Source: Folioceros fuciformis
Taxonomy: Eukaryota
Direction: 5' to 3'
NCBI GenBank assembly: GCA_049999805.1
Contig: JBNGIO010006161.1
Span: 62,001-126,000, forward strand
DNA: 64,000 nucleotides
A program made the position numbers and the translations under genes. The notes under the pieces are model-generated. The model ran no database searches, was not told the DNA's origin, and saw only the letters and a list, made by a program, of their open reading frames with translations. Positions 17,415 through 43,729 of this stretch are shown here, piece by piece (within the stretch, counting starts at the first letter, position 1; every line of letters begins with the position of its first letter).

Positions 17415-17490
17415 TTAGGGCTTAAGGTTTAGGTTTAGGGTTTAAGGTTTAGGTTTAGGGTTTGGGGTTAAGGTAAACCCTAAACCCTTA
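17415..17490. repeat. Degenerate interstitial telomeric repeat that switches orientation (TTTAGGG-type, then AAACCCT x2)
   Basis: ttagggcttaaggtttaggtttagggtttaaggtttaggtttagggtttggggttaaggtaaaccctaaaccctta. Confidence 0.8.
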
Positions 17491-17544
17491 CAACTACAAC
17501 ACTCTCATGCAATGAGTATGAACTACAACACTGTCATGCAATGA
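17491..17544. repeat. ~30-bp direct duplication
   Basis: aactacaacactctcatgcaatga and aactacaacactgtcatgcaatga, directly after the telomeric tract. Confidence 0.7.
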
Positions 17545-18530
17545 TAATGTTGTATATAATATGTGTGTGGTATAAATAATTATTAACTAATAAACCATGT
17601 ATAGGTGATTAATAAGATATGTACAATTAAGTCATGTGAAGGTGATTAAGGTATAAGGTATGATTAGATGATTAAGATATGAATAATTATTATCTAATAA
17701 ATTAGGTCTAAGTACAATGTATAACAGCATAACATTCATAATCCTATAACATGTATTTTTTATTTTTTATGATCTTTTTCTTTTGGTACATTTGGTATAA
17801 GCAACCTTTCAAGTCACTTCAACACATCAAACCATTACTATAGGCATGATGCCTATAGCAATCTGGTGGAACTGTTTTTGTCACCCTTGTGATGACAAGT
17901 TTTACATAAGAGAGCATCACTATACTTTTGGACATGATTCATATTCTTCCACATAAATAATATCTCATACATTAAAGTACAGAAAAGAATACGGTGTGTA
18001 ACGAATGAGACGTGAAGTGAAAAAGAACAACATGTTGCACATATGCTCATCCCATTTCTATTTGGCCCTATCACTTTCACTTGAGTGGTGGGTTGGCATG
18101 CGAGTGTATCGAAATTCAATGTGGACAAAGAAGAATTCAGCAATGGAAATTAAAACAATGGAAGAAGTTGCCGACTTATTGTGTCCATAGAACACGTCCA
18201 CATGGACTACACATGCAGACGTACTATTTTGTTTGGACAACCCTTATTTGTTCTGATGAAGCACTAAGTAACCATCTAATATGGAACCAATACATGAATT
18301 ATTGTCGGCACACGACACCTAGACTCAACTAATCTTGGTGATGCATCTTCTTCATCCAGAAGAATTAAATGTTGTCAGGGCCAAATGCACATTGGTCAAG
18401 CAACCATTGTGACATCTTCAAGTTCACCTGATAAACAACAATCAAAAGGCACATCTACATATGAACCCTTGTGCTTTTGAAACACCCAAGTTCAGAAATT
18501 GTCTTCAACAATCATGTTCAGATCAGTCAC

Positions 18531-19662: not shown

Positions 19663-19873
19663 CGTTCTACTGGCTCGCCATGTTCGAAGATTACCAACGA
19701 GGATATGAATCGTGTATTGCCAGCAAAGATAGGCATTGCCGTGGTGAGGGAGCTGGTGGACTGTTGGCCCTATTCAGTAGCTGCCTTTGCCGGGCAGGGC
19801 CGTTGGATCTTGTTAATGACTGCGCTCGGAAAGTATTGCACTCCAGGCAGTGCTCACGGCCCTCCTGCCACCT

Positions 19874-22843
19874 ATGGCTGTTTTGAGGTCCACAGGCGTT
19901 GTTGGAAGAAAGGCAGGATATGGAGGAATCGTAACGGCCGAAATTGTGACGAAGCTATGCTGTCAGGGATATCTGGAAGAATCAGTTGAAGGTTTGGCGG
20001 TTCTGGTGCAGGCAGACTGTTGTGTTTCTAGATCTCTTGTTTCGACTGTTCTCAAGAAATGTATGGTGAAGAAGGATCTCTGTCTGGGACGTCGAGTCCA
20101 TGCCGTGACAGTGAAAACGGGGTATCAGTCCGACACGGTCCTGTGCAACCATATCCTGCGTATGTACTCGTCGCATGGCAGGTTGCAAGACGCCATGGAT
20201 GTGTTTATGTTTCTTTCCAGTCCTGACGCCTTTCTGTGGGCTGCCATTATTTCTGCTCATGTCAGACATGGGGAAAACGAACAGGCCATTCAGCTGTACC
20301 TGAGAATGAGCAGGTCAAGTGTGAGGCCGGATGGGCATGTATTTGTGGCAGCTCTTCAGGCTTGTGCGAGGAGTTCGGACTTGATAAATGGGCAGAGGGT
20401 GCATGCTGATTTGTTGGCCAGTGGGGTTGAGCCTGATTTGTTCGTCTACAATGGCTTGGTGGACATGTATGCAAAGTCCGGCAGTTTGGAAGATGCTCGA
20501 AGAGTGTTTGATGGACTGGTTGTGAAGGATGTGGTGACGTGGACTACTCTGATTGCAGGGTATTCACAAGCGGGCATGGGCCACGAAGCTCTTCGTCTTT
20601 ACAGTGCTATGCAAGAGGAAGGAATGTCGGTGCCCAATTCTGTGACATTTGTGTGCCTCCTACAGGCATGTACCAGCACGGGCACGACAGCTTTGGAGAT
20701 GGGGAGGCGCCTTCATGAGCAGATCAAGCAACGAGGACACGAGTCTGATGTTTTCGTGACAAATAGTTTGGTGAACATGTATGCAAAGTGTGGCAGCATG
20801 GGAGATGCTGAGAGAGTATTCGACCAACTATGTCAGAAGGATGTAGTCACGTGGAATGCCATGATAGGAGGGTATTCCCAGCAGGACATGGGCCAGGAAG
20901 CCCTTCGATTGTACAGTGCTATGAAAGATGGAGGCATGGTTGCACCTAATGCTGTTACATTCTTGTGTCTCCTACAGGCTTGCGCAAGCGTAGGCGAGCA
21001 AGCGTTGGAGAAAGGGAAGCAGCTTCACGCGCAAATTAGAGAGGGAGGCTATCACTCTGATGTGTTTGTAGCCAACAGCTTGGTGAACATGTATGCCAAG
21101 TGCGGGAGCTTGGAAGACGCTCAAAAAGTGTTCGACAGACTTGGTCAAAAAGATTTGGTGACATGGAATGCAATGATAGCACGGTATTCCCAGCAGGGGA
21201 TGGGGGAGGAGGCCCTTCACCTCTACAACGCCATGCAAGGAGAAGGCATGCCTGTGCCCGACTCCGTAACGTTTGTATCCCTCCTGCAGGCATGTGCAAG
21301 AGTTGGCACCGCTGCTTTGGAGACGGGAAAACAGCTTCACTCTCAAATTAGAGAACAAGGGCATCTTCAGGCTGACGTTTTTGTAGCTAGCAGTCTGGTT
21401 AACATGTATGCAAAGTGTGGCAGCTTGGAAGACTCCAAGAGAGTGTTCGACGGTCTTGGTGAAAGAGATGTGGTGACGTGGAATGCCATGATAGCTGGGT
21501 ATTCCCAGCAGGGCCTGGGCCAGGAGGCCCTTGATCTCTACAGTGCTATGCAACAGGAAGGGGTAACTGTGCCCAATTCTGTGACATTTATGTGCCTGCT
21601 GCAGGCATGTGCCAGTGTGGGGACCCCTGCGTTGGAGAAGGGGAAGGGCCTTCATGCACAAATTAGAGAGCAGGGACACCAGGGTGATCTGTTTGTAGCC
21701 AACAGCTTGGTAAACATGTATGCAAAGTGTGGCAGCTTAGAACTTGCTCACAGAGTTTTCGAAGGTCTTTGTCAAAAGGATATCGTGACTTGGAACGCCC
21801 TGATAGCTGGGTATTCCCAGCAGGGGATGGGCCAGGAAGCCCTTCGCCTTTACAGTGGCATGCAAGATGGAGGAATTGCTGTGCCCAATTTAGTTACCTT
21901 TGTTTGTCTCCTGCAGGCATGTGCAAATTTAGCAGCGTTGCATTTGGGAAGACAGCTACATGCACAGATTGTTGAGCAAGGGCTTCAAGCTGACGTGGTT
22001 GTAGGTGGCAGTTTGATAAACATGTATGGCAAGTGCGGGAGCATGCTTGATGCACAACTGGTGTTCGATGCGTTGCTTGAACGAGATGTTGTCGCTTGGA
22101 GTGCATTGATTGCCGGCTACACCAGTCAAGGAGACAGCAACGGGGTCTTTGACTTAGTGAGAAGAATGATGGAGGATGGCATACAGCCAGTGGCTGTGAC
22201 ATTGCTTAGCGTGCTAACAGTATGTAGTCATGCAGGTCTGGTGCGCAAGGGGAGAGAGTATTTCGAATCTCTGAGAAGAGGAGAGTACGGCATCACACCC
22301 ACAGCAGAGCATTACACGTGCATGGTGGATCTGCTGGGTCGTGCAGGTCGACTGGTTGAGGCGCTAGCTTTGGTGAGGACAATGCCGGAAGTGCCTAATG
22401 CTGCAGTTTGGCACACACTTCTGGGTGCTTGTCGAAAGTGGAGCAACGTGGTGGTCGGGCGCCAGGCTTTCGAACAGTTAGTGCAACTGAACAAGAAGGA
22501 CTCCTCTGCGTATGTTTTGATGTGCAACATTTACACCAATGCCCAGATGTGGGAGCAAGCACAGGAGATGCAGTGTAGGAGGATCAGATCAAGGGCATGG
22601 AAGCAGCCGGGACAGAGCTGGTGGACTGACATGAATGGACTGGTGCATAGTTTCTTGGTCGGCTGTAAGACGCACATCAAGAGTGAACCTTCAGGCAAGG
22701 CTGAGGCAGCTTCTTTCCAGTATGAAGAAAGGCGAGCGCCCTCCTGGCACTCTCACTTTCCTACTTGCGTGATGTGGAAAGGCTGCGTATTTTCTTCTCG
22801 GCACAGCGAGAAGAGCAAACTGGAATCCCACAATCGGTTTTAG
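19874..22843 (+). CDS. PLS-class PPR protein with E domain, WW-type PG box and degenerate DYW remnant; paralog of 1428-4991
   Basis: Six MY(A/G)K(C/S)GS triplets, E domain, KQPGQSWWTD and a residual HSEK near the end. First in-frame ATG is at 19874. Confidence 0.95.
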   Translation: MAVLRSTGVVGRKAGYGGIVTAEIVTKLCCQGYLEESVEGLAVLVQADCCVSRSLVSTVLKKCMVKKDLCLGRRVHAVTVKTGYQSDTVLCNHILRMYSSHGRLQDAMDVFMFLSSPDAFLWAAIISAHVRHGENEQAIQLYLRMSRSSVRPDGHVFVAALQACARSSDLINGQRVHADLLASGVEPDLFVYNGLVDMYAKSGSLEDARRVFDGLVVKDVVTWTTLIAGYSQAGMGHEALRLYSAMQEEGMSVPNSVTFVCLLQACTSTGTTALEMGRRLHEQIKQRGHESDVFVTNSLVNMYAKCGSMGDAERVFDQLCQKDVVTWNAMIGGYSQQDMGQEALRLYSAMKDGGMVAPNAVTFLCLLQACASVGEQALEKGKQLHAQIREGGYHSDVFVANSLVNMYAKCGSLEDAQKVFDRLGQKDLVTWNAMIARYSQQGMGEEALHLYNAMQGEGMPVPDSVTFVSLLQACARVGTAALETGKQLHSQIREQGHLQADVFVASSLVNMYAKCGSLEDSKRVFDGLGERDVVTWNAMIAGYSQQGLGQEALDLYSAMQQEGVTVPNSVTFMCLLQACASVGTPALEKGKGLHAQIREQGHQGDLFVANSLVNMYAKCGSLELAHRVFEGLCQKDIVTWNALIAGYSQQGMGQEALRLYSGMQDGGIAVPNLVTFVCLLQACANLAALHLGRQLHAQIVEQGLQADVVVGGSLINMYGKCGSMLDAQLVFDALLERDVVAWSALIAGYTSQGDSNGVFDLVRRMMEDGIQPVAVTLLSVLTVCSHAGLVRKGREYFESLRRGEYGITPTAEHYTCMVDLLGRAGRLVEALALVRTMPEVPNAAVWHTLLGACRKWSNVVVGRQAFEQLVQLNKKDSSAYVLMCNIYTNAQMWEQAQEMQCRRIRSRAWKQPGQSWWTDMNGLVHSFLVGCKTHIKSEPSGKAEAASFQYEERRAPSWHSHFPTCVMWKGCVFSSRHSEKSKLESHNRF

Positions 22844-26227: not shown

Positions 26228-29200
26228 ATGGCGCCGATGAACATCAAAGATGTGCTAACGGCATTCAGTCCTGACGGAAAATTCCTTGCGCTCACCTCTG
26301 GGGATGGCCGTGTGAAGGTGAAGCTTCGCTGACCTGCCCTGTTTGTTTACTTTAGAATCATCCGGCACAAGGGAAAGCAGTTTAGAGGTTTGGATTCTAT
26401 CGTGTGGATGCATAACTTGTCAGCTGATGGAGTTGAGAATGCTGGGGGATGCAGACGTGGGATGTGGGGAGTGGACATATGCGTGGGGAGTTCGTGGATA
26501 TTGCATCTTCCTCTAATAGTGTGGGCACTGCAACGGGACTTGCGAATGGACATTTAGCTGTAGAGTATACATCGCTTGCATGGGGGAATTCCGTCAGCTC
26601 TGCGCAGAAGAAGGTGCGTGTTGGACGTGGATGCCAACCAAGTATCACTATCACAACTCTGGGATGTTTGCAGCTAGCCCCTGTCTGGGATTTCCTTTGT
26701 AGATGGCTTCAATCTTCTCTTTGTGTTCTCAGCTCACCTGCTTGGGGGTCTCGATTTGTAGGCGAAAAAAAGGGGCGGGACCTCTTTGCTGCTAGCCCTG
26801 GGAACTGGGTCTGGGGACGTGTTAGCCTGGGATGCAGCACTTGGTGAACTGAAGTGGAGGAAGAATGATGTCAATCCTGGGTCAGCTCTTGCTATAATGC
26901 TGAGACTGCTCATTCTGACATGATGAAATCTTTTGTTGTGTCATTGGTTTCTGTGAAGCCATATTTCCCATTTTTTCCAGGTCTATTCCTCATGCTCTTG
27001 CAACCTTGTTCTTCATGTAGGGGTGTGAAAGCCATTGTCTTTTCAAGAAGTGGTCAAAGTCTCTATGCCGTTGGGGCTGATGGAATGGTTTGTGAGTTGG
27101 ATTCTGGAGATGGAAGGCTGATGCAGAAGTTTAAAGGGTCAAAAGCTCCCCTATCAAGTGTTGCAGTTTCACCAGGTTATTTCGCTTGCCATCCTTTTCG
27201 TCTCCTTGTCTTTGCAAAATCGTGCTTGCATGGCGTATGCCCTTGCTAATGCTTGATTTGGTATTTCAGATGGTGACAAGTTACTTGCGGCCAGCGCTGA
27301 GATTAAAATTATTGATTTATCGAGTAAAAAGCGGATTCGCAAGTTTACAGGGCATCCTGTAAGTGCTTGTCGTTTTGCCGTGCATCTTGCTTTCATGCTC
27401 ACAAGTCAGGGCATCTGCTCTCCTGCTCTTAACTGAGGTCATTTGAACTTTCTTCTACTGTCTGCTCACAGGCTTTGGTGAGGGCAATGGTGTTCGCAGA
27501 AGATGGGCAACACATAATCTCAGCAGCTCCTGGTGACCGTCATGTCGCTGTGTGGCTGTGTAATCAGGAGAAATCTGGAAGTGGCGCTGCTTTTACCCTC
27601 CCTATGGAGCAGCCAGCTGTAGCTCTTGACTGCAGTGGTTTTGGGACCGATGGAGAAAACGTTAGAGTCCTTGCCCTGTCAGAAACAGGGATTGCGTATG
27701 TCTGGATAGCAGCTAATGTGGAAGGCCTAGCTAAGGCCAAGCCAGTGAAAATTAGTGTTGCTAGGGAAAACTCAGGGACAGGCTCTCCTGAAAAGGTCAG
27801 GAGAAGCACCAGAAGTTGCATCCTGGCAGCCAGGTTGCTAAGCAGAAGAGATGGCTCAGGCTCTGTGCTGTTAGCTCGAGGCACCTCTGCCAGGCCTCAA
27901 TTTGAAAGGGTGCCTGTTGATGGTCAAAATACACATATTGTCCTTCATGCTCCAGAAACTGGGGATTTGCTGTCTGGAGGACAGAAGAAGACTGACTTGG
28001 GAAGGGCAGCTGAGTCACGTGATGGTACTAGCTTAAAACTGATGTATGTTAGTATTGGGCCTCTGCTGGCATTCTGGTGTTTTAATTCCGTATTTTCCTT
28101 TGGTGCAGTGGCTGTTGTAGGTCCCGATAGCGCTGTGGACGCTGTTTTCACAAGAGCTCACATAGAATCTGACGGGGAAGTCCTGAAGACGCCTAGGAAA
28201 GAGAAGAAACGAAAAGCGTCAATGGCATTGGATGCAGAGCAGCCTACTGGGAAGCATTCTAAGTCGGCAGGTGAGGCCTACCCTGCTGGGCTTGTGCGTG
28301 GAAGGATTGCTGTTTTCCTGAGAGCACGTCGTCTCACGTGGTTTTGTACTTACGCTTTTCAGACGTTCTAGCGGATGGAGTCTCAGGAATGGAGGTGGAC
28401 GGAGAGCAGGAGCCAACGATGGAGGATCGGTTGATTGCCTTAGGACTCGTAGAATCTGAGGAAAGGAAGTTGGTGGAGCAAAGCAAGGCGTTAGATCCTT
28501 TGGTCGTACCCAAGGCAGATAGTTTACAAGTTCTTCTGACCCAGGCCATTCATGCGGATGATAACGCCCTGCTAGAGCGTTGTGTTGCGGTCACTGATCC
28601 CAAGGTACGTCTTTGTTCCATCATCACTCCTGCCTCGTATTCCACGGACAATGCGCATCGTTATATGGTCTGGTCTCATGTGCAGGTTATATCCAATACC
28701 GTTAGCAGGCTACGTACACACGATGTTGCAAAGTTCCTGGGACTGATGGTTTTTAAAATGGAGACGAGGTTCGTGTTAACTTCGGCAGACCTGGATATCT
28801 TGTTCCTTGATCTCGACTGGACGTTCCTTCAGTTCGAATGTTTCTCTGGATGTGATTGTCAAGCTCATTGGTTGAAACAAAATGCAGACCAAGACGAGGA
28901 TTGAACCTGGTACCTTGGATAAGAGCAGCGCTTACACAGCACGCGGCTTCCCTCATGTCAGCTCCATCTATGCAGCCTGTTTTAGCGTCTTTGTATCGGG
29001 TGCGGTTTCTTCACTTTTGTTTCAAGATTCTCTTTACGATTCATGTACGTGTGCACGGATGCGTGAGCTGTACACTGACGGGGTACTATGTCCGTTATGC
29101 AGATAATCGATGCAAGAGTTTCAGTATTCAAGCCTCTCCTCTCTCTCTCTGGCCGCCTTGACCTCATTCTGGCACAGGTCTGCCTCCACCTTGCACCCCA

Positions 29201-29495
29201 TCTCGTTACTCATCCATCCGCCGCAAAATGGACAAAGCGCGTGACCCGTGAGCTGCTGCTTTGTGTAACGCAGACACCCAAGGAGAATCAAGAAGAAGCA
29301 AGGGCAGAAGGACCTGCCGTAGTCTACGAAGACGAAAGCTCTGAACCTGAATCAGAGGATGTCATGGATGAGCAGGTGCATGACGGTGTGGCCAAGGACA
29401 GCAGCGACGACGAGCAGGAAGCCTTGTCTGCCCTTCCCAACGGCCACAGTTCATTGCAAGACGACGAATCTTCGGACGGGGATGACGCGCCTTGA
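26228..29495 (+). CDS. WDR43: WDR43/UTP5 (WD40 repeats plus Utp12/Dip2-like domain), multi-exon
   Basis: MAPMNIKDVLTAFSPDGKFLALTSGDGRVK, WD40 exons, SLQVLLTQAIHADDNALLERC, LVPWIRAAL, LSLSGRLDLIL and an acidic tail. Confidence 0.9.
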
Positions 29496-29582
29496 AACCG
29501 GGACCTCTGAAGCGCCAGATGCTTTTTTGATAAGTTGAGTGTAATTCAATCGAATCTGTAGTTCTACCACATTTGTTTATGG

Positions 29583-30412
29583 TCAAAAGGGTTTGTCCCC
29601 AATTACAGTAGCTCTGTGCATCACCCGGCGGTGGTGAGGGACGTAGTCTCCCACCGCGTAGTGCTGGGTTATGCGGTTGTCCCAGAACGCTACATCGTTC
29701 ACCTCCCACCGCCAACGCAACGTGAACTCTGGTCTGACGATGTGCGCGAAGAGCAATGCCAGCAGGGCATCGCTTTCCCGCTGGCTGACACCTAGGATCC
29801 GCGTGGTGAAGCCTTCGCTGACGAAGAGGCCTTTGCGACCGGTCATCGGGTGTGTGCGCACGACCGGGTGGACTACCGGCGGGTGCCGCTTCTTANNNNN
29901 NNNNNNNNNNNNNNNNNNNNNNNNNNNNNNNNNNNNNNNNNNNNNNNNNNNNNNNNNNNNNNNNNNNNNNNNNNNNNNNNNNNNNNNNNNNNNNNGGACA
30001 GAGCGTCGAAGGCCGCCGAACAGCTGGACCACAGCGTGTCGCCGCCTGCGCCAGGTGGCGGCAGACGCTGTGCTGACAGGATCGTGCCCAGTGGAGGAGT
30101 CTCGATCCACGTCACGTCCGTGTGCCAGTTGTCGTTGTCCGGCGGGTGGTCGCCGTCCGCGTCCAGGACCATGATCCCTGGCAAGCCCGGGCTGCTGGGA
30201 TAGATGGGATGGACGTGCAATTCGCCGAATCGAGACGCGAACGCGTGTTGCTGCTGCGGGCTCAGCGGCTGGTTCCGGAAGAATATCACTTGATGCTGGA
30301 GCAGCGCCTCCGTGATGCTCTCGATCTCTTCCTTGCTCAATTCCTCCGAGAGCTTCACTCCTTCCACCACGGCGCCGATGGCCGGCGACAGCGGCGTCAC
30401 ACGCACTGCCAT
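29583..30412 (-). CDS. tauD: Alpha-ketoglutarate-dependent taurine dioxygenase, bacterial type; no intron in the visible coding sequence; spans a 100-N gap
   Basis: [59 protein letters not shown] and [15 protein letters not shown] are near-collinear with E. coli TauD as I recall it. The HxD...H facial triad is intact. Confidence 0.93.
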
Positions 30413-30523
30413 TCCTCAAATCTGTGCCGCCTCCACAATTTGCAAGGTCTCGCTAAGAAACGACAAGGGTTTACGGAAGCAGATACACTCACAAAGAAGC
30501 CACAATGTCTCTCGAACCAGAAA

Positions 30524-30630
30524 GTCTCAATGCCTCTCAAAGAAGAAATCTCAAGGCCTCTCAAACCTGAATGGCCCAGGCCTCTCAAAGCTGAATTCTC
30601 AAGGCCTCTCGAAGCTGAAATCTCAAGGTC
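30524..30630. repeat. 24-bp minisatellite, about 4.5 copies, upstream of tauD
   Basis: Units of the form tctcaaggcctctcaaagctgaa(a/t). Confidence 0.85.
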
Positions 30631-30988
30631 TGCGTTGAGGATGATGGATTGCGTCTTCTGCGGGAATCTGAGCATGAAGGGAGTGCTGCCTTTACGAATC
30701 GTCCAGGTACAGAGCACTTAGAGAAGGTAGGGCCGGGTCTTATTACCATCCACGCAATCGGGTCTTGCCACAACTGGAGGCAGATATCCAAGCTGCTGAC
30801 AATTCCACATGATTTAGATTGTTTTCAAAAGTCCTCAGCTGCTGACGAATTCCTCCGTAGCTTGGACCTATACTAGTCCGATTTCTACCAGAGGTGAAAG
30901 ACAATAGACTAATGATGTTATTGGATGTCAGGGACAGCGTCACACTCGGTCGAAGCCTTTGATTCTTCAGACGTGCTCCGAGGGAAGT

Positions 30989-32278
30989 TCAGTACAGGCA
31001 CAAGCGGAATGGCTGAGACAACAGCGCCGGGAGGAGATGACGTCGGTACAACTCCCAGAACTCCCTCCTGCAAAACAGACCTCTCCTGTCACTTCAGGGA
31101 TGCCAAATAGCAGATCTAGACTGGAGACAGATAGGGTGGACATCTTACTGCACATCGGGCACGCTCAAAACCGTGAGGCCCTTGACATCCTGGTGCATAT
31201 CCAGCAGCACCAGTGACAGTTGCCCCAGACCTAATGCTCCCAGATCCACCAATTTTCTGATTCTGTCATATGCAGATAGGTTGTCACTTTAGTACAAGGC
31301 AATGCTAATGGGAGATTAACGAAGGGACCATGTGGAGAAAGACTGAGTGAGTGCCAGACCTGTTCGGAGTACCAGCGGCTATGTTCACCCGTCGTTTCAA
31401 AGCCTTTACCTGAACAGACCATGATGCAGGATCGTCCATCAGCGGGAGGTACTTGGAGAGGTGGAAACAGTAGACAAAGGTACGAGGGCTTTGAGAAACA
31501 TGCCTGCTCCTCAACTTTGATGTGCTTAGCGAACAGCTTTGCAGGTGGACAGTCAGCAGTGAAGAACGACTTCAATCCCCTGGTCACATCGACACCGGGA
31601 GCAAACACGAGAGTAAAGTACGCATCATGACAGCTGACTTGAGAGGGGTAAGACTAGGAATGAGCGTATCACGCTGCCGCACCTCAAGAGGTCCACACAT
31701 CGGTTTGCGGAACTGCATATGACAAGCAGAGAGACGCCTCCTGGTTCCCTCCCGGACTCACTATCGTCAGCAAGCTCGGTACCACACAGAGTCTCTTGCC
31801 ACGATGGCCCTATAACAGATTTCACATGGTCGCCCAGACTCTCCACACTGCGATCCTTTGCTTCCTCCAAGTGAGCAAATTTCTCGGCTGTCCAGCATCC
31901 AGCATCCAGGAGTCAGATACCAAGCCCTGGTCTGTCACCAACACTTTAACTATTCTGCAAACTGGATCAGAACTGGCAGAAACCTGGGACAACATCCTGC
32001 TCCAGCGAGGAGAGCACAGCGCCGAAGAAGGAGTGAAACTGAGCAGCAAACCACTGGGCCTGCTCTCCGGGAGAGCGCCACTGCACCGCGCTTCTGTCGC
32101 TGGCATTTGCACTCCCATCCTCCTTGCCCTTCTCCCTCTGCTCTTTACCAAGGTCCTTCTTTCTCAAAGGCTTGGTAAGCCTCTGCTTCTTCTTCAGGGG
32201 CCTTGCTAGAGCCTTCGTGGTCTTCGGCTTGACGCCGCCATTCAGAGAAGCCCGGCGATTCCTGTTAACTAACGGCAT
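30989..32278 (-). CDS. CMS1: CMS1/CMSS1 90S pre-ribosome factor, multi-exon
   Basis: LLVICSSANRCVDLLR, AKLFAKHIKVEEQVKAL, NIAAGTPNR, LDMHQDVKG, EFWELY...LCLY*. Confidence 0.88.
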
Positions 32279-32559
32279 TGCTTACTGTTGATTTTACGAT
32301 CATCGTTCGGCGGCCCACGCACCCATCAGGCAACTATACCCTGCTCCCCGTGGAGTTCACATGTATATAGTCTCGTGTACATATTCCTATTTCTGTCTCG
32401 ACGGAACTCCGTCGTCCTCCATAGTGGACTGTAATAGAAGTCTTCTTCATCCCCCTCTTCTGAATTCATGCGCAGTTGTTCCCAGGGTGTAGGAATGTAG
32501 GGCTTGTAGGTGACAGGTGGGCAGATCTAGAAGGGCCTGTTTGCTCGTCGACGTCCTTC

Positions 32560-35412
32560 ATGGGCCTTGCGGCTGAGGCTGCACCGGCCTTTGCCCGAGC
32601 TGGTTTACTGATAAAAACACCGAGCAAGCTGTTTCAAGAGGGATTAGGCAGGGTGCTGACTAGCCGTGATGCTCTTCAGGTTGCAACTTGGAAGATTGTT
32701 TGTGAGCAGGGTCGACTTCTGGAAGCCGTGGAAGCGTTGGACCCTGTTGTGCAGCAGGGATCGTATGTTCCAGATTCGATCTTCTACCAACTGCTCAGGG
32801 GGTGCATGATCAGGAAAGATCTGCTTGCTGGCAGGCGCCTTCATGCTCTGTCGGTTAAAAGCGGTCATGGCTGTAACACATTCTTGGCCAATCACATCAT
32901 TCGAATGTATGCGTCTCATGGAAGGTTGCAGGAAGCCTCAGAGGTTTTTTCCCAACTGGCAGCCCCGGATAGCTTCATGTGGTATTCTATTATTTCGGCA
33001 CATGCTGAATACGGTAAGCCTGGAGAAGCGTTGACACTGTATGGCGCGATGAGGCAGTCAGCTGTGAAGCCAAACGACTATATTTTTATGGCGGTGCTGA
33101 AAGCCTGTACAGCTGCCGCAGACGTAGAACTTGGCAAGCAGGTCCATTCTGATGTGTTAGGGACTGGGGCGGAGCCCAGTGTTTTGGTTGGCAACGGTCT
33201 GGTGGACTTGTATGTTAAGTGTGGGAGGTTGAAGGATGCTCGAGGTGTATTCGACAATATGTCTGTGAAGAATGTGGTGTCCTGGACTGCCATGATTGGA
33301 GGGTATGCTCAGCATGGTCAGGGTGAAGAGGCCCTTACTCTGTATTCATCTATGGTAGATGAGGGTCTGACTGAAGCGAATCAAGTCACCTTTGTGTGTT
33401 TATTGAAAGCATGTTCCAGTACCGGCGCTTTAGATAGAGGCAAGGAATTAGAGACGCAGATTCACGCAAGACAGCTGGAATCAGATCTAATACTTGGCAA
33501 CTGCCTGGTGGACATGTATGCAAAATGTGGGAGCATAAAGGATGCCCGCAGAGTGTTTGACCGATTGCCAACGAGAGACGTGGTCACGTGGAATACTTTG
33601 ATTGCTGGATATATTCAGCATGGGCTTGGTCAAGAAGGACTCAGTCTGTACCAACGAATGCAAGAAGAGGGCCTTACTCCAGATATTGTCACATTTGTGG
33701 CCCTTCTTAAAGCATGTGCCAGCTTTAGAGCTTTACATGAAGGCAAGGCAATTCATTCTCGGATCCAGGAACGTGGACTGGAAGGTGACTTGATTGTCAG
33801 CAGCAGCCTGGTGGATATGTATGCCAAGTGTGGGAGCTTGGAGGATGCTCGCAAAGTGTTTGATGATCTGGCCACCAAGGATGTGGTTGCATGGACTGCC
33901 ATGATCACAGGTTATGTCCAGCATGGCCTCTTTGAAGAGGCCCTTGATGTGTATAGAAACATGCAAACTGAGGGCATTACTCCAGCCAATCCTTTTACCT
34001 TTGTCTGCCTCCTGAAGGCATGTGCCATCAACAGATCGTTGCTGGAAGGCAAGCAGTTGTATAGGCAAATTCAGGAGCAAAGCTTGGACGCAGATGTGGT
34101 GGTTGGCAGCAGTCTTGTGGACATGTTCGCAAAATGCAGCAGCCTAGAAGAGGCTCGTGAAGTGTTCGACAGGTTGCCTAATAGAGATGTTGCGACCTGG
34201 AATGCCATGATCACAGGTTATGTTCATCATGGGCTCTATCAAGAAGCTCTGAATCTGCATGAAAACATGCAGCAGACGAGCAACATTCCAAGGAATAGCT
34301 CCATGTTTGTGTGTCTTTTGAGAGCATGTGCTGCACTTGGAGCGTTACAACAGGGAAAGCGGCTTCATTTGCATATTCAGGAATCAGGACTGTTAGCTGA
34401 CGAGCTTGTTGGCAGCAGCCTTGTGGACATGTATGCCAAGTGTGGCAGCTTGGAGGATGCCCGCACACTGCTGGACAGTTTGCCAACAAGGAATGTTGTG
34501 GCATGGACAGCTTTGCTGAATGGTTATGGTCAACACTGTGATGGCCAGGCGGCAATCCAGTGTTTCCAAGAGATGGAACAGCAGGGTGTTTCGCCTGACG
34601 ATGCTACATTTACCTGCCTACTTGTGGCATGCAGCCATCAGGGTATGGTTGATGAAGGTCAAAAGTATTTTAGAATGATGGTGGAAATTCATGGCATCAC
34701 TCCGTCTTTGTGTCACTATAATTGCATGGTTGATCTTCTCGGACGGGCAGGACATCTAGATGAAGCAGAGAATATGTTGCTGAAAATGCCGTTTGAAAGT
34801 GACCTTGTGGGCTGGACATCTTTGCTGAATTCCTGCAAGACTCATGGTGACGTTCAGCGGGGAAGGCGTTGCTTTGACAGGCTTGTACAGCTAAGCCCTC
34901 AGCACTCTGCTGCATATGTACTTTTGTCCAACATTTATGCAAATGCTAGTATGTGGAGTGAAGTGGAATCGGTAGAAAGTTTGAGGAGGTCTGTTGGTGC
35001 ATGTAAGAAGCCTGCAACTGCCTGGATTGAGCTCAACAGTAAAGTTCATGCCTTCTGCGTCGGGGAGGAAAGGGATGATGTAGCGTCCAAGCTACGGAGT
35101 GTAAATATGCTGCTCGAGGCTGGAAGTAACCTTGAGACACAGACAGAGTTGAGGTCAAAACTCGGGCCGGATCATGCAAGGCATGAGGATGCCTTGTGTG
35201 GACATGCTGAAAAGCTTGCTCTAGCATATGGTCTCCTGAATACTCCGGACGGCCAAACTCTTCTTGTCACCAAGAATCTTCGGATGTGCAATGACTGCCA
35301 CAGTGGAACCAAGATTATGTCCAGAGTTGAGAAGCGAGAGATCATAGTCAGAGATGCCCACCGCGTGCACCGTTTTGTGGATGGGTTTTGTTCTTGTGGT
35401 GATCAGGATTGA
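32560..35412 (+). CDS. PLS-PPR protein with complete DYW:KP-type deaminase-like domain (candidate U-to-C RNA editing factor)
   Basis: KKPATAWIE in place of the PG box, HAEKLALAYG, KNLRMCNDCH, and C-terminus HRFVDGFCSCGDQD. Intronless. Confidence 0.93.
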   Translation: MGLAAEAAPAFARAGLLIKTPSKLFQEGLGRVLTSRDALQVATWKIVCEQGRLLEAVEALDPVVQQGSYVPDSIFYQLLRGCMIRKDLLAGRRLHALSVKSGHGCNTFLANHIIRMYASHGRLQEASEVFSQLAAPDSFMWYSIISAHAEYGKPGEALTLYGAMRQSAVKPNDYIFMAVLKACTAAADVELGKQVHSDVLGTGAEPSVLVGNGLVDLYVKCGRLKDARGVFDNMSVKNVVSWTAMIGGYAQHGQGEEALTLYSSMVDEGLTEANQVTFVCLLKACSSTGALDRGKELETQIHARQLESDLILGNCLVDMYAKCGSIKDARRVFDRLPTRDVVTWNTLIAGYIQHGLGQEGLSLYQRMQEEGLTPDIVTFVALLKACASFRALHEGKAIHSRIQERGLEGDLIVSSSLVDMYAKCGSLEDARKVFDDLATKDVVAWTAMITGYVQHGLFEEALDVYRNMQTEGITPANPFTFVCLLKACAINRSLLEGKQLYRQIQEQSLDADVVVGSSLVDMFAKCSSLEEAREVFDRLPNRDVATWNAMITGYVHHGLYQEALNLHENMQQTSNIPRNSSMFVCLLRACAALGALQQGKRLHLHIQESGLLADELVGSSLVDMYAKCGSLEDARTLLDSLPTRNVVAWTALLNGYGQHCDGQAAIQCFQEMEQQGVSPDDATFTCLLVACSHQGMVDEGQKYFRMMVEIHGITPSLCHYNCMVDLLGRAGHLDEAENMLLKMPFESDLVGWTSLLNSCKTHGDVQRGRRCFDRLVQLSPQHSAAYVLLSNIYANASMWSEVESVESLRRSVGACKKPATAWIELNSKVHAFCVGEERDDVASKLRSVNMLLEAGSNLETQTELRSKLGPDHARHEDALCGHAEKLALAYGLLNTPDGQTLLVTKNLRMCNDCHSGTKIMSRVEKREIIVRDAHRVHRFVDGFCSCGDQD

Positions 35413-36340: not shown

Positions 36341-37175
36341 AACGGCGGGTAGTTCCCAAATTGCCATCCGTGGGGGACGGATTAGATGGTCGGTCCGCCT
36401 CGGTTCGGGGGAGACGGCCATGCATTGTCATCCTATGTGATAGATCTCACCTTCTTAACCTATAACCAGTCATCTTGGATCCTTCGCAAGTTACAAGGCC
36501 CAAGGAGGTACAAGGGAATAACTACTACATCAAGATTTAAAATATGAAGAAATTTCTTTACAGCTACATCTCGTTCAAAAAATGTCATGATCTAGTGTCG
36601 AAAAATGTCTCTGGCGTGGCTTGTATTGTCCATAACATAATTATAATCATAATAATATATCAAATAATTCGAAATTTTATAGGTTTGTGTTACATATCTA
36701 AACTGCACTTAAAGAAAATGTAACTCAGAGCAATGACCGAGACCATTTAGGTCGATTAAGATATGGGTTTAAGGTTATTAAGATGCATTAAGTTGATGAA
36801 GAGGCGTTAAGTGTGAGCGCTGTGTATATATGTATGCATGGCTTCCCATTCCTAGTATATTAGAACCTTGGACTCGCTGTTCTCCAACAAGATCAACGAC
36901 GTTAAACCTTGCAATTCCAGCGCACGGGCTTCAACGGTTGCAGGTTGGTTGTCGAGAATGGCCTTAGCTTCCTGAAACTTCGTGTCGAATTTTCTTGCAT
37001 TGTCGTCGGTCACTAGTGTAACAATCACTTGTTGTGTGCGCTCATCTCTTTTTTTTTAGGCCGATAGATTCAGGCACTGTAGCCTTGAATCACATCTGTT
37101 GGATTCAAATTTGGCCGCAGCAGAGCTGCTAGTGCGCACCACTGAGCTGACTGATCACAAACGTCGTCGCTGACG

Positions 37176-40100
37176 ATGCCGAACGTGGTGAATTCACATT
37201 CTGTGGAAGGGACGGATGTGCAAGTGGAGGAAGGAGCACGAGAAATGAAGATTAGAAACATCTGCATTTTAGCACACGTGGATCATGGCAAGACAACTTT
37301 GGCAGATCATCTGATTGCTGGGGCAGGGGGCGGAGTGATTCATGCAAAGATGGCTGGGAAGCTCAGGTTTTTGGATTATAGGGAGGATGAGCAATTGAGA
37401 GCCATCACCATGAAGAGTTCGGCCATCACTCTGCAGTACAAGGGCCACGCCATTAACCTAATTGACTCACCGGGACATGTTGATTTTTGTAGTGAAGTGT
37501 CAACAGCAGCCCGCCTTAGCGACGGGGCGTTGGTGCTGGTAGATGTGTGTGAGGGGGTGCACATACAAACGCATGCCGTTCTGCGGCAGGCGTGGATTGA
37601 GAAGGTCACACCGTGTTTGGTGCTCAACAAGGTTGATAGGTTGATAACGGAGGTGAAAATGACGCCTTCGGAGGCGTACGCACGTATGCAGGTAAAGTGC
37701 GATGATTCTTCACTTGGTTTCAAGAATGCAGTTTGAGATCTTGTGCTATACAGAGTAGTTTTCTTCCAGGCTCATGATCGTGCAACGCTGTTTTTGCAGA
37801 GCATTATTGGCGAGGTCAACAACATTATAAATGCTTTTCGTTCGGAGAAGTATATATCGGATGTGGACTCCATCCTGGCAGGACCCTCGTCCCCTTTGGA
37901 CGAAGGAGGGGGTCAGGGGGTGGAAGACGAGCCCGATGAAGAAGATGCTTTTGCTCCAGAGCAGGGAAATGTGGCGTTTGGCTGTGCACTCGATGGTTGG
38001 GCTTTTCAGATCGAACAATTTGCTGACCTGTACGCCACAAAACTGGGTGCAAGTATCAAGGCCTTGAAGAGAGCTTTGTGGGGGGATTACTACTATAATC
38101 CCAAAACGAAAAAGATTGTGGGCAAGAAGGCAGCAGCTGGAAAACTGAAACCCATGTTCGTCCAGTTTGTGCTCGAACCACTTTGGCAGGTCTATGATGT
38201 CGTTATGCAGGGGAGTAAAGGTACAGATATGCTGCAGAAAATTATAAAGTCCATGAGCTTGACAGTTCCTCCTCGTGAATTGGTGCACAAGGATTGTAAA
38301 GTAGTGCTTCAGGCAGTCATGAGTCGCTGGCTTCCCATAGTGGACGCTGTTTTGTCCATGGTGGTGGAGAAGTTGCCTGGTCCTGGCGTAGCGCAAGCTT
38401 ACCGAGCTGTTCGTTTGATGCCTACCCATTTGTACCCTACCGGAATCAGCACTGAGGTCCAAGAAAAGTTGGGGAGCGTGCGGAAGGCTGTTGAAGTATG
38501 TGATGACAGCAGTACTGCACCCTGTGTAGTTTACGTCTCCAAGATGTTTGCAGTTCCTACTGAGATGTTGCCACGCTCCAATCCTGAAGGGGAGGTTCTA
38601 ACCAATCTGGAAGATGAACTCGGGCTAGGTGACAGTGATGCTTCCCATCATGAGTGTTTCCTTGCATTTGCTAGAGTATTTAGTGGGGTTCTGCGTGCTG
38701 GTCAGAATGTTCTTATTCTCTCACCACTTTATGATCCCACTGCACCGAAGTTGGATACCGATTCTCTGCAAGAAGCTACTGTTCAGGCCCTCTACATGAT
38801 GATGGGAAGCGGTCTGGAGCCGAAAGCTTCCGCCTCTGCTGGTAATGTGGTTGCATTGAGGGGCCTCGGGCAGCACATCCTGAAAACTGCAACTTTATCC
38901 ACCACTCCTTATTGCTGGCCTTTTCAGAGTATGGACTTTCAGGCGGCTCCGATTGTCCGGGTTGCTCTAGAGCCAAAGAACCCAGCAGACATGGGTGCTC
39001 TTGCAAGAGGCTTAAAGCTCCTTAACAAGGCAGACCCATTTGTTGAAGTATCTGTATCTGGGAATGGTGAACATGTTCTTGCAACAGCTGGGGAAGTCCA
39101 CCTAGAGAGGTGTATCAAGGATTTGAGAGAGCGTTTCGCAAGGGTTGAACTGGAAGTGTCGCCACCCTTGGTGGCATTTCGAGAAACCATAGAGCCTGGT
39201 AGTGAGGACTCTCAGCAGTGTGGTCAGATGGGTTTGGAATATGTTGAAACAACTACGCCAAACAAGAGGTGTACGGTTCGTGTATACCTTGAAAGGTTGC
39301 CAGCCTCTATTTTGAAGGTTCTAGATGATAATCAAGAACTCCTGAAAGATATTATTGAGGGTCGTCCCATCTCCAGTTACAGGAAAAAAACTTGGATTGA
39401 CAAGCAAGGCGATGCTAAAGAGGATCCAGTTGCAACTTTGAAAGCTAACCTTTTGGCTGCTGCGTCTGGTGAAGATTCCTCTGGGGCAAACAAAAATTCA
39501 TATTGGCTTAAACGACTTGAGAGAATATGGGCCTTGGGGCCCAGACAAATGGGACCCAATCTTCTTCTCACTCCTGTTGGGAGGAAGGTAAGCCAGCAGA
39601 GCAATTCAGAAGAGCCTGAAGTCGACATGCAGTGTGTGAGAGGCTCTCCGCAGATGTCCAGGAAACTGGGCCTCGCTGAAGGTAGCTACGCTTCGACGGT
39701 CGCCGAGGGTCTAGCCGGGGATTCTCTGTCTCTTGAATCAGGATTAGAGGGTAGTGTAACAGCTGGTTTTCAGCTGGCAACAGCTCAAGGCCCTCTGTGC
39801 GAGGAGCCCACGTGGGGTATGGTCTTCACGGTCGAAGCATTCGTGTCCAAAGCTAAGGGTGATGCTGAAAATGGGGAGGGTGCTGACTCTGCTGCAGATG
39901 CTGGAGGAGGCAATGTTGCTGATCAGTACGGGCCGTTTTCTGGACAGGTTATGACTGCTGTGAAGGATGCTTGCCGAGCAGCTATGCTTGCACGAAATCC
40001 CAGAATTGCTGAAGCCATGTACTTTGTGGAGGTCAGTACAGGTCCGGAACATCTAGGCCAGGTGTACGCTGTTCTAGGCCGAAGGCGAGCTCGTGTTCTG

Positions 40101-40433
40101 AAAGAGGAGATGCAAGAAGGCACAGCTGTGTTTCTAGTCCATGCTTACATGCCTGTCGCTGAAAGCTTTGGATTTGCGGATGAGCTGCGTAGGAAGACTT
40201 CAGGTGCTGCTAGCCCCTTATTAGTCCTGAGTCACTGGGAAGCTTTACTCCAAGACCCTTTCTTCGTTCCCAAGACAGAGGAGGAATTAGAGGAGTTTGG
40301 CGATGGGTCGAATATCCCACCCAATACTGCAAGGAAGCTTATTGACGGTGTGAGGCGACGCAAAGGCCTGGCGGTGGAGGAAAAGGTTGTCCAGTTTGCA
40401 ACAAAACAGAGGACTAGAGCAAGAAAAGTCTGA
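37176..40433 (+). CDS. EFL1: Elongation factor-like GTPase 1 (EFL1/RIA1), 2 exons (37176-37691, 37800-40433)
   Basis: [64 protein letters not shown]. Confidence 0.96.
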
Positions 40434-41241
40434 TGCCGGCAGGGTTTCAATCACCTTCTGCCCCGAGGGCTTTGAATGATTTCTCTTCATCCCACTTGGC
40501 CAAGATCATGGATTCCTCTTGTCGGCACAGGAGAACTCAGGCCTCTGAGGTATGCAAGCAGATAACATGAAGACTGCTCTGTCTGCGTAATGGCCAACAG
40601 AACAGCAAACGCACACTGAGGAAACAAACATGCAGCAGCCGACTGTTGTAGTTCCTCAAACGCAAAAGCTAGAGCAATTTTCCCTGTCATGGGTGAAGAG
40701 TTCCATGTCATCTACCGGAGGCAGACTCGTCTTCAACAAAGGTTGTGTCCCCGGAGACTTGGAGAATGCGCTGAACAAGAAGTTTAATCGGCCGTTCGCT
40801 TCCGCCGGAGGCTCGTGTTTTCCATCGGTGGGCACAAAACAGCGTGTCACATATCCACTGAGCAAATAGCTGCGTCGGCGTCCGAGAGAGTACGAGAATT
40901 ATCATCTGAAAATAACGTCAGCGTCATACGCGATATGGATGTGTACCACTTGGTAGGCGCAGCAGTAACGAGTCCTGGGGTCAGGGTTGCTATAACCAAG
41001 CTCAAGTGTTTTGTAAATCACTATATTCTCAGGTGCTGACGGATTTAAGGATGCGTCTTAGGTAGGCTGCTGCAGCTTGGTGGAAGGCCAAGGCACAGAG
41101 CTGGGTGTACATGTAGCACATAGTTGCTACTAGACACGTGCCATTACGCTGATCATCAGCGGTTTCGCCTCGCCCAATATTTCGCCTCTCTTCTTCACTC
41201 TCGAAGTCCAGCAAGTTTTGTTGGACGGTGTTGGGCCCAGC

Positions 41242-41392
41242 TTTGAAGACGGACGATGCTGATACTTTCAAGCCGGACGATGCTTTTACTTTGCAGCCGG
41301 ACGATGCGTATACTTTGCAGCCGGACGATGCTGATACTTTGCAGCCGGACGATGCTGATACTTTGAAGCCGGACGGTGCCGATACTTTGAAG
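41242..41392. repeat. 21-bp minisatellite, about 7 copies
   Basis: Near-identical units of ctttgcagccggacgatgctgata. Confidence 0.9.
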
Positions 41393-41639
41393 TTGGCAAG
41401 TTCAGTGGAACCTCCCTGATTGGGAGTTTCTCTCTAAATGGGACCTCTATCTTACGCCCTTTAGATAACTATGAAAGAAAATATTAAACTTTAAAAAAAT
41501 TAAATGATCATTAAGAGATTTTTGAAACAAATATTGTGGGTAGTTTTACATAGTGAAATATATTTCTTTAATATATTTCTTAAAATAGACTTTGCATTCT
41601 ATCAATGTAATATAAATATATAATCATTAAGAAGAGATA

Positions 41640-41845
41640 AGGCAAAAAAAGATTGGAGGAACAATCCCAAAAAACCAAAGGTAAAGGCAAAAAAATATTG
41701 GAGGAACAATCCCATTAGGACAATCTTTGGAGTAACAACCCCATTATGGCTAAAGGTAAAGGCAAAAAAAGATTGGAGGAACAATACCATTAGGGCCAAA
41801 CGCACAAAAAGATTGGAGGAACAACCCCATTAGGGCCAAAGGTAA
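41640..41845. repeat. Four spaced copies of AAAAGATTGGAGGAACAA(T/C)(C/A)CC at the 3' side of the retroelement
   Basis: The motif recurs at about 41645, 41690, 41765 and 41805, with shared aaggtaaaggc and cattagggcc segments. Confidence 0.8.
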
Positions 41846-41879
41846 AAAGAGGAGGTACTCTCCCCTGCGAATATCTTTT

Positions 41880-43671
41880 TCAAAAACTACCTACTGCTCC
41901 CAAAATATCATGATGTGGAATAACAAAAGGCCTACCTACCATCGGTGCCGAAGAAGCCACTTGACCTGCACTTGTTGCTGTTCTCAAAACTGCATTGGCC
42001 AATGCTCGTTGCAAATCAATGGATACACGTTGTCGAAAGAAGGCCACCACAGAGAAAAGAGGGAGAACACCATTCCTATTGTTCTGATAAACCTTGGCGC
42101 ACTCCTTGATAAACCTTGAAAAGTTCTTGCCCATAGCCCCATGAGTCTCAAGAGCAAAGAGGGATGAAAGTATGCCCATCTTGCAAGGGAGAATACTTAT
42201 GGAGTTTGGCACTTGCACAACCCTTTGTTGCCCAACCAAGGGGGTTGATGATGACATGCTCAGAAATCGAATCCCTAGTGGGATCCGTAACAACCACATT
42301 AGCGACACAAACCTATTCTCCCCTAGTGAAGAAAAGGTCGGTGTTAAGTGAAACGTCATTGCGCAAAGTATAGGGATGCTCCCTATAGGGAAGAAACCCA
42401 CACTCCCTAGCCATTGAGAATATGACATCTCAAACTACATCCTGAGTGGCAATGCGGTGCCCCCCAACGGGACAACGTGCCAAGTGGGACTTTATATCGA
42501 CAATTGCAACCCCACAACCGCATGAAGAGAGAGAAAAAGCCAAGGAGTGGACTAAACCTAAGCGAAATCTCATCGCGGTGGCGAAAGTTGCTAGGGCGAT
42601 TCGAAATGCCTAAATGCAAAGTCGAGCTAAAAGCCAAGAGCTCGCTCCTTTACCTGAACAAGATCGAATACGAGCTCGAGAAGACTTAGGGATGGATGAA
42701 TTTGAAAGAAGGGCTCTTAGTGCTTGGCCATATTGCTTTCCTAGGAGGGAGGCTTGGAGACCCTTNNNNNNNNNNNNNNNNNNNNNNNNNNNNNNNNNNN
42801 NNNNNNNNNNNNNNNNNNNNNNNNNNNNNNNNNNNNNNNNNNNNNNNNNNNNNNNNNNNNNNNNNNNNNNNNNNNNNNNNNNNNNNNNNNNNNNNNNNNN
42901 NNNNNNNNNNNNNNNNNNNNNNNNNNNNNNNNNNNNNNNNNNNNNNNNNNNNNNNNNNNNNNNNNNNNNNNNNNNNNNNNNNNNNNNNNNNNNNNNNNNN
43001 NNNNNNNNNNNNNNNNNNNNNNNNNNNNNNNNNNNNNNNNNNNNNNNNNNNNNNNNNNNNNNNNNNNNNNNNNNNNNNNNNNNNNNNNNNNNNNNNNNNN
43101 NNNNNNNNNNNNNNNNNNNNNNNNNNNNNNNNNNNNNNNNNNNNNNNNNNNNNNNNNNNNNNNNNTAAAAGACCAACAAAGACAACTGGGGCAAAGGCCT
43201 CCATGGCTAAAAGACCAACCCCTTCAAAGGCGATTGGCAAAGAAACCTGCTTCCAAGCCAAATCATCGACAGCACACTCGAAGGTGCCCGGACCTATGAT
43301 GTTCCCAAGAGTCTGCATAACTTGATTGTCAAACTTCCTGAGACTTGATAAGAAAAATGGAGAAGGCGCAACAGTTCTAGTGAGGTAACCTGGTCGCCGT
43401 GCAAAACAAACGCAATCTAAGGATCACCGATTTGTGAGAGGTCTATGATATGAGCCAAATCTTCATCCAATGCTTCATCCACAAACCTATACCAAATCTT
43501 CNNNNNNNNNNCCAAATCTTCATCCAATGCTTCATCCACAAACCTATACCAAATCTTCATCCACTGCTTCATCCACAAACCTATAAACAAAATCAGGAGG
43601 TCCCATAGGCATACCTAAGACTCGAAGTCCCTGCGAGGGAGTAATATCCCCAAATATTGAAGGGGGGAGTG
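41880..43671 (-). mobile_element. Decayed, 5'-truncated non-LTR retrotransposon with restriction-like endonuclease (CRE-clade-like)
   Basis: Minus-strand translation: GLRVLGMPMGPPDFV (RT end), QVSLPIAFEGVGL (thumb), ARIRSCSGKGASSWL, MRFRLGL, SCGC...HLARC (zinc knuckle), TDL...NVVVTDP...KLHKY...FALETHG...FFRQRVSIDLQRA. It has in-frame stops and a frameshift, and spans two N gaps. Confidence 0.8.
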
Positions 43672-43692
43672 AACCCTAAACCCTAAACCCTA
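43672..43692. repeat. Telomeric repeat (AAACCCT) x3 at the retroelement 5' junction
   Basis: aaccctaaaccctaaacccta. Confidence 0.85.
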
Positions 43693-43729
43693 CCCATCAT
43701 CAAACAACCTTATGAGTCTCCTGTCATGC

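Follow-up and report, generated by a model that had tools for sequence, protein, structure and literature searches.

A bacterial-type taurine dioxygenase gene in the nuclear genome of Folioceros fuciformis and its probable single, ancient transfer into land plants

Taurine dioxygenases of the TauD family hydroxylate the carbon beside the sulfonate group of their substrate, releasing sulfite and an aldehyde. Sulfonates make up a large part of the organic sulfur in soil. Sulfate is the form in which plants, by the textbook account, acquire sulfur; to our knowledge, that account has no place for direct use of sulfonate sulfur, and desulfonation is seen as the province of microbes. A TauD gene was analyzed in a 64,000-nucleotide stretch of Folioceros fuciformis DNA (assembly GCA_049999805.1, contig JBNGIO010006161.1, positions 62,001 to 126,000), here termed the window, whose own numbering is used throughout. 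The gene probably goes back to a single ancient transfer of TauD from a proteobacterium to plants, followed by vertical descent, duplication, and loss. The closest described systems are the TauD proteins of Escherichia coli (1gqw and 1os7) and Pseudomonas putida (3pvj), which share the PF02668 fold family with the window protein, have similar lengths (283 and 277 amino acids, respectively, vs. 281 in the window), and are identical to it at ~60% of the aligned residues. The iron, 2-oxoglutarate, and taurine contacts readable in the window protein are all identical to those of both bacterial enzymes. The window protein differs from the solved bacterial TauDs in a two-residue insertion before the GGDTLW motif and one extra His before RRVMHR, and its gene, unlike the bacterial tauABCD operon, is a plant nuclear gene amid spliced plant genes, with no transporter partner seen in the 64-kb window.

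A further described gene is Chlamydomonas TAUD1 (Cre13.g569400), annotated as a taurine dioxygenase and tied to sulfur metabolism in PMC8374494; it and the window TauD are both green-lineage genes annotated or typed as taurine dioxygenase. The locus also resembles the bacterial-to-land-plant transfers catalogued in PMC3493653, PMC7027989, and PMC12513842, representing the same kind of event, i.e., a bacterial metabolic gene, intron-poor and somewhat GC-rich, that is common to early-diverging land plants. The hornwort genome study describes transferred genes as higher in GC (PMC7027989) and the bryophyte pangenome study gives 1,809 transferred families, held in supplementary tables (PMC12513842). 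Neither "taurine" nor "TauD" is found in the main text, as distinct from the supplements, of Yue et al. 2012 (PMC3493653), PMC7027989, the Anthoceros genomes paper (PMC8075897), and PMC12513842, and "dioxygenase", a term applied to the first three of these sources and not to PMC12513842, is likewise missing from the main text of those three. A full-text literature search turned up no paper that connects hornworts, mosses, or bryophytes in general, or land-plant gene transfer, with TauD or taurine dioxygenase. The family may already be present in the supplementary gene lists of catalogues of land-plant horizontal gene transfer (HGT).

The gene was compared over window positions 28000-31600 with contigs of public sequencing runs, of which X1 and X2 are DNA from one sample, X3 carries the same organism label and belongs to a different study, and X4 carries another organism label. 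The TauD locus comprises the following features:

30509 to 30628, no strand: tandem repeat of 24 nt x 5 copies in the interval between TauD and the CMS1-like gene (TRF score 133)
30413 to 30572, minus strand: probable 5' untranslated region (UTR) of TauD, a transcribed 5' flank (X3 contig collinear with the genome, no joint)
29996 to 30412, minus strand: N-terminal part of the TauD coding sequence, 139 codons with the ATG at 30410-30412 (PF02668, 1gqw, and NF007104 matches)
29896 to 29995, no strand: 100-N scaffold gap within the TauD gene, standing for ~116 nt (39 codons) of coding sequence
29583 to 29895, minus strand: C-terminal part of the TauD coding sequence, 103 codons plus the TGA at 29583-29585 (PF02668, 3pvj, 1gqw, and NF007104 matches)
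29496 to 29582, no strand: spacer of 87 nt between convergent stop codons (GC 0.40)

The 100-N run interrupts the TauD open reading frame (ORF) and shifts its apparent frame, and it is not an intron. A contig of X3 puts 116 letters in place of the 100 N, joining 29895 to 29996, and the gap closes in frame (313 + 116 + 417 = 846 nt, or 282 codons) to give a product of 281 amino acids. The gene is intronless, with no intron joint inside it in this transcript-type contig, and an in-frame TGA at 30416-30418 lies two codons 5' of the ATG which, together with the absence of an upstream joint in X3, leaves no room for an N-terminal extension or transit peptide. Residue 1 of the window protein aligns to residue 1 of the Pseudomonas TauD. 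The ORF has a GC content of 0.61-0.64 and a third-codon-position GC content (GC3) of 0.75-0.81, compared with a window mean GC of 0.50. It is the single TauD locus of the window, as a tblastn with the Calypogeia fissa protein P0003 matched only the two halves. The 24-nt array in the 5' flank could be a promoter or UTR element or merely a microsatellite-like array.

By its sequence, the ORF is typed as encoding a bacterial-type TauD, i.e., an Fe(II)/2-oxoglutarate taurine dioxygenase. Owing to the gap, the protein was scored as two halves. Against PF02668 (TauD/TfdA; Pfam cut-off 27 bits), the N half matched profile positions 2-139 (E 4.7e-31, ~109 bits) and the C half positions 173-267 of 267 (E 4.2e-31, ~109 bits), while profile positions 140-172 fall in the N gap. 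The best structural matches were E. coli TauD 1gqw (E 7.9e-49 for the N half and 1e-47 for the C half) and P. putida TauD 3pvj (9.5e-47 and 6.1e-48, respectively), the next family members in the PDB, such as AtsK, being far weaker (~1e-24). The TauD equivalog profile NF007104 (cut-off 313 bits) scored the halves at 193.9 and 181.0 bits, a plain sum of 374.9 with each half alone below the cut-off, compared with 440, 426, and 424 bits for the full-length plant relatives P0003, P0088, and P0004.

The window protein is identical to E. coli TauD at positions H70, Y73, N95, H99, D101, V102, T126, F206, H255, R266, and R270. These include the iron-binding facial triad His99, Asp101, and His255, covered by the WHTDV and TQHY segments (His99-X-Asp101...His255) identical to 1gqw, along with the 2-oxoglutarate contacts Thr126 and Arg266, covered by the aligned GGDTLW and RRVMHR segments. 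The taurine contacts are His70, Tyr73, Asn95, Val102, Phe206, Arg270, Ser158, and Phe159, the first six of which are identical to 1gqw in the alignments (6/6). Within the KSF motif, K156 and F158 (P0003 numbering) are invariant in 10/10 full-length members of the plant clade described below. A preliminary description of the window had reported a proteobacterial-type TauD with the motifs of the family, including the distal Arg, in a GC-rich and intronless ORF without a transit peptide; the typing was borne out by the PF02668, 1gqw, and 3pvj matches on both halves, the motifs were found in column-for-column alignment with E. coli TauD with the distal Arg in RRVMHR, and the GC content, the lack of a joint, and the upstream TGA agree with the remaining points.

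Homologues were sought with the N half among longer proteins, where 1752 sequences passed E 0.001, and with a profile of four plant proteins, which was passed by 7999 of the 8000 candidates scored; all statements on matches refer to the best 120 of 1752 and the best 120 of 7999. The N-half search gave four named plant proteins, from Calypogeia fissa (71% identity), Diphasiastrum complanatum (two proteins, 63%), and Ceratodon purpureus (62%), and the remaining named rows were bacterial taurine dioxygenases with 58-66% identity, including those of Chitinimonas, Chitinolyticbacter, Jeongeupia, Crenobacter, and the family Steroidobacteraceae. In the profile search the top ranks were held by six named plant proteins, a pair from each of Diphasiastrum, Ceratodon, and Calypogeia, with P0112, P0124, P0086, and P0125 scoring among them before a drop from 507 to 476 bits at Chitinimonas. 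In both searches the closest non-plant relatives were beta/gamma-proteobacteria (59-68% identity) and not cyanobacteria or alphaproteobacteria. No seed plant, fern, alga, fungus, or animal was named among the best 120 of either search, nor was there a EukProt row or a named row from Physcomitrium, Marchantia, Riccia, or Selaginella. The lack of an algal row in these sets suggests that Chlamydomonas TAUD1 is less similar to the window protein than the bacterial TauDs are.

The plant orthologues from C. fissa (P0003 and P0128), C. purpureus (P0088 and P0123), and D. complanatum (P0004 and P0005) share 63-74% identity with the window protein and, with the exception of P0128, have 279-280 amino acids and lack an N-terminal extension as does the window protein. 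Their source names are hypothetical or unnamed proteins only, and compared with these liverwort, moss, and lycophyte orthologues the window copy is from a third bryophyte lineage. P0128 (copy b of C. fissa, 327 amino acids) has an N-terminal extension of ~45 residues and a long branch, basal in the plant clade, and may be a targeted paralogue or an annotation artefact. P0086, from a 3.6-kb JGI metagenome contig and labelled taurine dioxygenase, groups with Ceratodon copy a (support 98-100) and is likely moss DNA in an environmental sample.

Phylogenetic analysis was based on three careful trees. In the first, with 61 rows hand-picked from 222 relatives (the window, 10 plant or plant-like, 27 named bacterial, and 23 unnamed), all 11 plant rows were on one side of a branch with support 98/92 and the window grouped with Calypogeia copy a at 99/97. 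The second had 60 rows and included 16 distant outgroup representatives from the 150 listed of 1.84 billion cluster representatives searched, a search in which TauD proper, plants and bacteria together, formed one 50% cluster before the score fell from 571 to 387 bits. This tree recovered the plant clade at 100/98 and placed it inside the proteobacterial TauDs after the split of a Steroidobacteraceae-like group (node 81/92). The third tree, with 28 rows, gave the plant clade again (98/94), and across trees the window paired with Calypogeia copy a at support 97-100. Within the plant clade, Calypogeia copy b was basal, the window and Calypogeia copy a formed a pair, and the lycophytes with P0125 stood next to the moss group; path lengths from the window to other plants were 0.57-1.0 changes per column. 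Forcing all bryophyte-like rows into one clade cost 14.8 log-likelihood units and was not rejected (p-AU 0.135).

The physical linkage of the gene to plant DNA was assessed through its two neighbors:

28108 to 29495, plus strand: 3' exons of a convergent plant gene (GT..AG joints in X3; stop at 29493-29495)
30718 to 32278, minus strand: spliced CMS1-like gene, upstream of TauD on the same strand (ORF from MPLVNRN at 32278)

A contig of X3 with 3429 nt and 0 other letters has six GT..AG introns of the plus-strand neighbor removed, including those at 28268-28359, 28603-28683, 28767-28885, 28999-29101, and 29175-29270, and continues through the last exon of the neighbor, the 87-nt spacer, the TauD C half, and the N half up to 30572. 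Its spliced joints imply that the contig derives from RNA and, since the neighbor and TauD converge, a contig across both does not show one transcript. DNA contigs of X1 (28020-29895) and X2 (28184-29888) span the intron-bearing neighbor, the TauD C half, and the spacer between them, and X1 contigs enter the gap by 130 letters on its left side and 10 on its right. Contigs of three runs from two studies, one contig carrying spliced host exons, bridged the left junction and the gap. In X1, contig word depth, a coarse measure, was 9.6-12.5 for the TauD pieces and 12.5-15.9 for the flanks. TauD is a real nuclear plant gene that is present in transcript-type contigs. The X1 and X2 runs also hold a contig of ~30 kb with higher word depth (45 and 24) that matches only 29653-29687 (35 nt, 3 mismatches); it is plainly a separate sequence and probably a bacterial tauD of an associate in the same sample.

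The preliminary description had placed TauD among plant genes, with its stop <90 bp from that of a WDR43 gene on the left and a CMS1 gene on the right. The spacer was measured at 87 nt and the embedding stands for the left side and the gap (X3, X1, and X2), the junction on the right being unbridged by contigs. The WDR43 name was not confirmed by Pfam or PDB, as the exon pieces of three exon-bearing ORFs gave no match in either beyond a weak WDR55-like one (E 0.0067), and the Pfam CMS1 match of the right neighbor was partial and below cut-off (E 1.1e-5, 25.4 bits vs. 35). In X3, the CMS1-like gene shows splice joints at 31066/31148 and 31262/31360 that read CT..AC in the window and GT..AG on the minus strand. 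The preliminary description had named chimeric joins or aberrant coverage as signs against the transfer; the X3 contig joins plant exons to both TauD halves, and the X1 depths of the TauD pieces lie near those of the flanks.

A contig of X4, the run with the other organism label, is ~95% alike over 29997-30468, including the TauD 5' flank, in which it has small insertions and a shorter 24-nt repeat array with indels. In the N-half coding sequence, this copy and the window have 17 differences in 16 codons (11 synonymous and five non-synonymous). From this pattern of codon changes relative to the related-species copy, TauD is under purifying selection.

The window also carries several genes of land-plant type, namely DYW-type pentatricopeptide repeat (PPR), TORTIFOLIA1-like, and PADRE genes (Pfam) together with EFL1:

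5 to 1042, minus strand: TORTIFOLIA1-like N-terminal exon (GC 0.66, GC3 0.77)
1404 to 4991, plus strand: long intronless PLS-class PPR ORF (Pfam)
19820 to 22843, plus strand: long intronless PLS-class PPR ORF (Pfam)
32464 to 35412, plus strand: long intronless PLS-class PPR ORF (Pfam), the third of the three, with E motif and DYW deaminase domain (Pfam)
37155 to 40433, plus strand: EFL1 (elongation factor-like GTPase 1) gene, very long exon
56338 to 57279, minus strand: PADRE-domain gene (GC 0.62, GC3 0.69)

The EFL1 exon shares 59-63% identity with proteins of lycophytes, liverworts, mosses, ferns, and gymnosperms, with a top match of 72%; a quick 24-row tree placed the window and this top match as a third lineage beside mosses and liverworts (SH-aLRT 93 for the group) with the lycophyte outside, which points to a bryophyte of neither of these two groups and probably to a hornwort. 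The PPR density fits a plant with heavy organellar RNA editing. The AT-rich stretches at 41000-44000 and 17000-18000 (GC 0.31-0.41) probably represent repeats or the remains of a transposon left unclosed by the assembly; two more N runs (42766-43165 and 43502-43511) lie in the first of them. The native genes are strongly heterogeneous in GC3, with 0.77 in the TORTIFOLIA1-like gene, 0.69 in PADRE, and 0.70 in exon 1 of the CMS1-like gene compared with 0.46-0.59 in the PPR and EFL1 genes.

Taken together, a single ancient transfer is the probable origin of the gene. A proteobacterial TauD would have entered an early land-plant lineage a single time, ahead of the divergence of bryophytes and lycophytes, and vertical descent would have followed, with duplication in certain lineages and loss in others, seed plants apparently among them; both the timing and the donor we infer from the sequence comparisons. 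Such an event explains the plant-only clade, its place among bacterial TauDs, its deep branches, and why no named algal or seed-plant relatives stand among the matches listed. Several observations weigh against this scenario or against parts of it. The distribution among plants is patchy in the matches listed, so that a single ancient gain needs many losses, and P0112, P0124, P0125, and P0086 are called plant-like from their tree position only. In the second tree, the support for nesting in bacteria is moderate (81/92) and that of the root branch weak (76/87), one distant representative is placed in the ingroup, and the donor is a polytomy of the remaining bacterial groups and the plant clade. 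The order inside the plant clade is not the species tree, which old paralogy or plant-to-plant transfer could explain. At the locus itself, the N gap hides two of the taurine contacts (E. coli S158 and F159), the "RNA" label of X3 is a guess of the tool with the spliced joints as its support, and the contigs show neither the strand nor the ends of the RNA. Finally, no contig links TauD to the CMS1-like gene and this right junction is given by the window assembly; contig ends cluster in the 24-nt repeat at 30568-30580 and 30611-30623, with 30581-30610 not continuously covered, and the junction is unbridged because all contigs stop in this tandem repeat.

Among the alternatives, one transfer followed by plant-to-plant spread, or several transfers from one unsampled bacterial lineage, is unlikely and yet fares best. 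It would account for the patchy occurrence among the named plants in the matches listed and for an inner topology that departs from the species tree, in which the two Calypogeia copies are not sisters. However, a species-like bryophyte grouping was not rejected (p-AU 0.135), the long paths within the clade (0.57-1.0 changes per column) are as expected for old splits, and old paralogy accounts for the two copies in three named genera.

That this plant or its genus received the gene recently, in a lineage-specific transfer from a GC-rich proteobacterium, as proposed in the preliminary description, is quite unlikely. In its favor, the gene lacks introns and is rich in GC, its GC3 being 0.75-0.81 vs. 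0.46-0.59 in its PPR and EFL1 neighbors, it is 59-66% identical to bacterial TauDs (best 120 of 1752), and many model bryophytes are not among the matches listed. Base composition was considered as a sign of recent transfer and rejected, since the native TORTIFOLIA1-like, PADRE, and CMS1-like exons reach GC3 values of 0.69-0.77 and composition is therefore uninformative on recent arrival. Furthermore, the window pairs with Calypogeia at 97-100 within an 11-row plant-only clade supported at 98/92 to 100/98, its 71-74% identity to the liverwort protein exceeds that to any bacterium among the matches listed (at most 66%), and a related species already has the gene with a similar 5' flank. The bacterial origin by horizontal transfer claimed in that description is upheld by the nesting of the plant clade among bacterial TauDs in the second tree, whereas the acquisition by this plant itself is contradicted by its position in a clade with Calypogeia, Ceratodon, and Diphasiastrum. 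Placement in a green-plant clade had been named there as evidence against transfer, and the trees give such a clade at the shallow level while retaining bacterial nesting at the deep level.

Less probable again is an ancestral eukaryotic or endosymbiont-derived gene that was kept only in non-seed plants with no transfer into plants. Green-algal genes annotated as TauD exist, such as Chlamydomonas TAUD1 in PMC8374494, and the root of the TauD tree is weakly placed, but no alga or fungus or further eukaryote is named and no EukProt row is present among the best 120 of both searches, where the nearest relatives were beta/gamma-proteobacteria (59-68%) rather than cyanobacteria or alphaproteobacteria, and the plant clade is nested in proteobacterial TauDs. 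Bacterial contamination or a chimeric scaffold joined across the N gap, to which the gap inside the gene, the ~30-kb higher-depth contig with its 35-nt match in the DNA runs, and the unbridged right junction might point, is highly improbable given that each half is continuous with plant sequence in the window, that DNA contigs of two runs span the spliced neighbor and the C half, that one contig from another study links plant exons to both halves and on to the 5' flank (0 other letters) with an in-frame closure of the gap, that the TauD pieces have a (coarse) X1 depth of 9.6-12.5 near the 12.5-15.9 of the flanks, unlike the 45 of the bacterial-looking contig, and that the gene and the same 5' flank recur in a second species.

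The activity, substrate, compartment, and physiological role of the window protein are predicted from residue conservation. The enzyme, which lacks a targeting peptide and would probably be cytosolic, is expected to hold Fe(II) by the His-X-Asp...His motif, to bind 2-oxoglutarate by Thr and Arg, and to bind the sulfonate by the His/Tyr/Asn/Arg set. It may hydroxylate C1 of taurine or a similar aliphatic sulfonate to a product that would split into sulfite and an aldehyde, and the released sulfite would join sulfur assimilation. Scavenging of sulfonates by this plant via TauD is plausible from these conserved residues. As a wider proposal, advanced tentatively and with rather less confidence than the single ancient transfer, non-seed land plants (hornwort-like, liverwort, moss, and lycophyte) may keep a bacterial TauD in active form, acquired a single time close to when land plants arose and held under purifying selection, for obtaining sulfur directly from taurine or other aliphatic sulfonates, with seed plants having lost it.

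The enzyme family and the phenomenon of transfer are both well known and the advance is accordingly modest. The locus is a well-anchored addition to the bacterial genes gained by plants at about the time they colonized land, and it illustrates that neither a high GC content nor the absence of introns dates a transfer. The TauD orthologue of the window has its readable active-site residues intact, and the gene is conserved in at least four early-diverging land-plant lineages. If the wider proposal is true, sulfonate sulfur could come from soil organic sulfur or from the breakdown of the plant's own sulfolipid. Bryophytes and lycophytes may thus be able to use sulfonates, which is a simple testable hypothesis.

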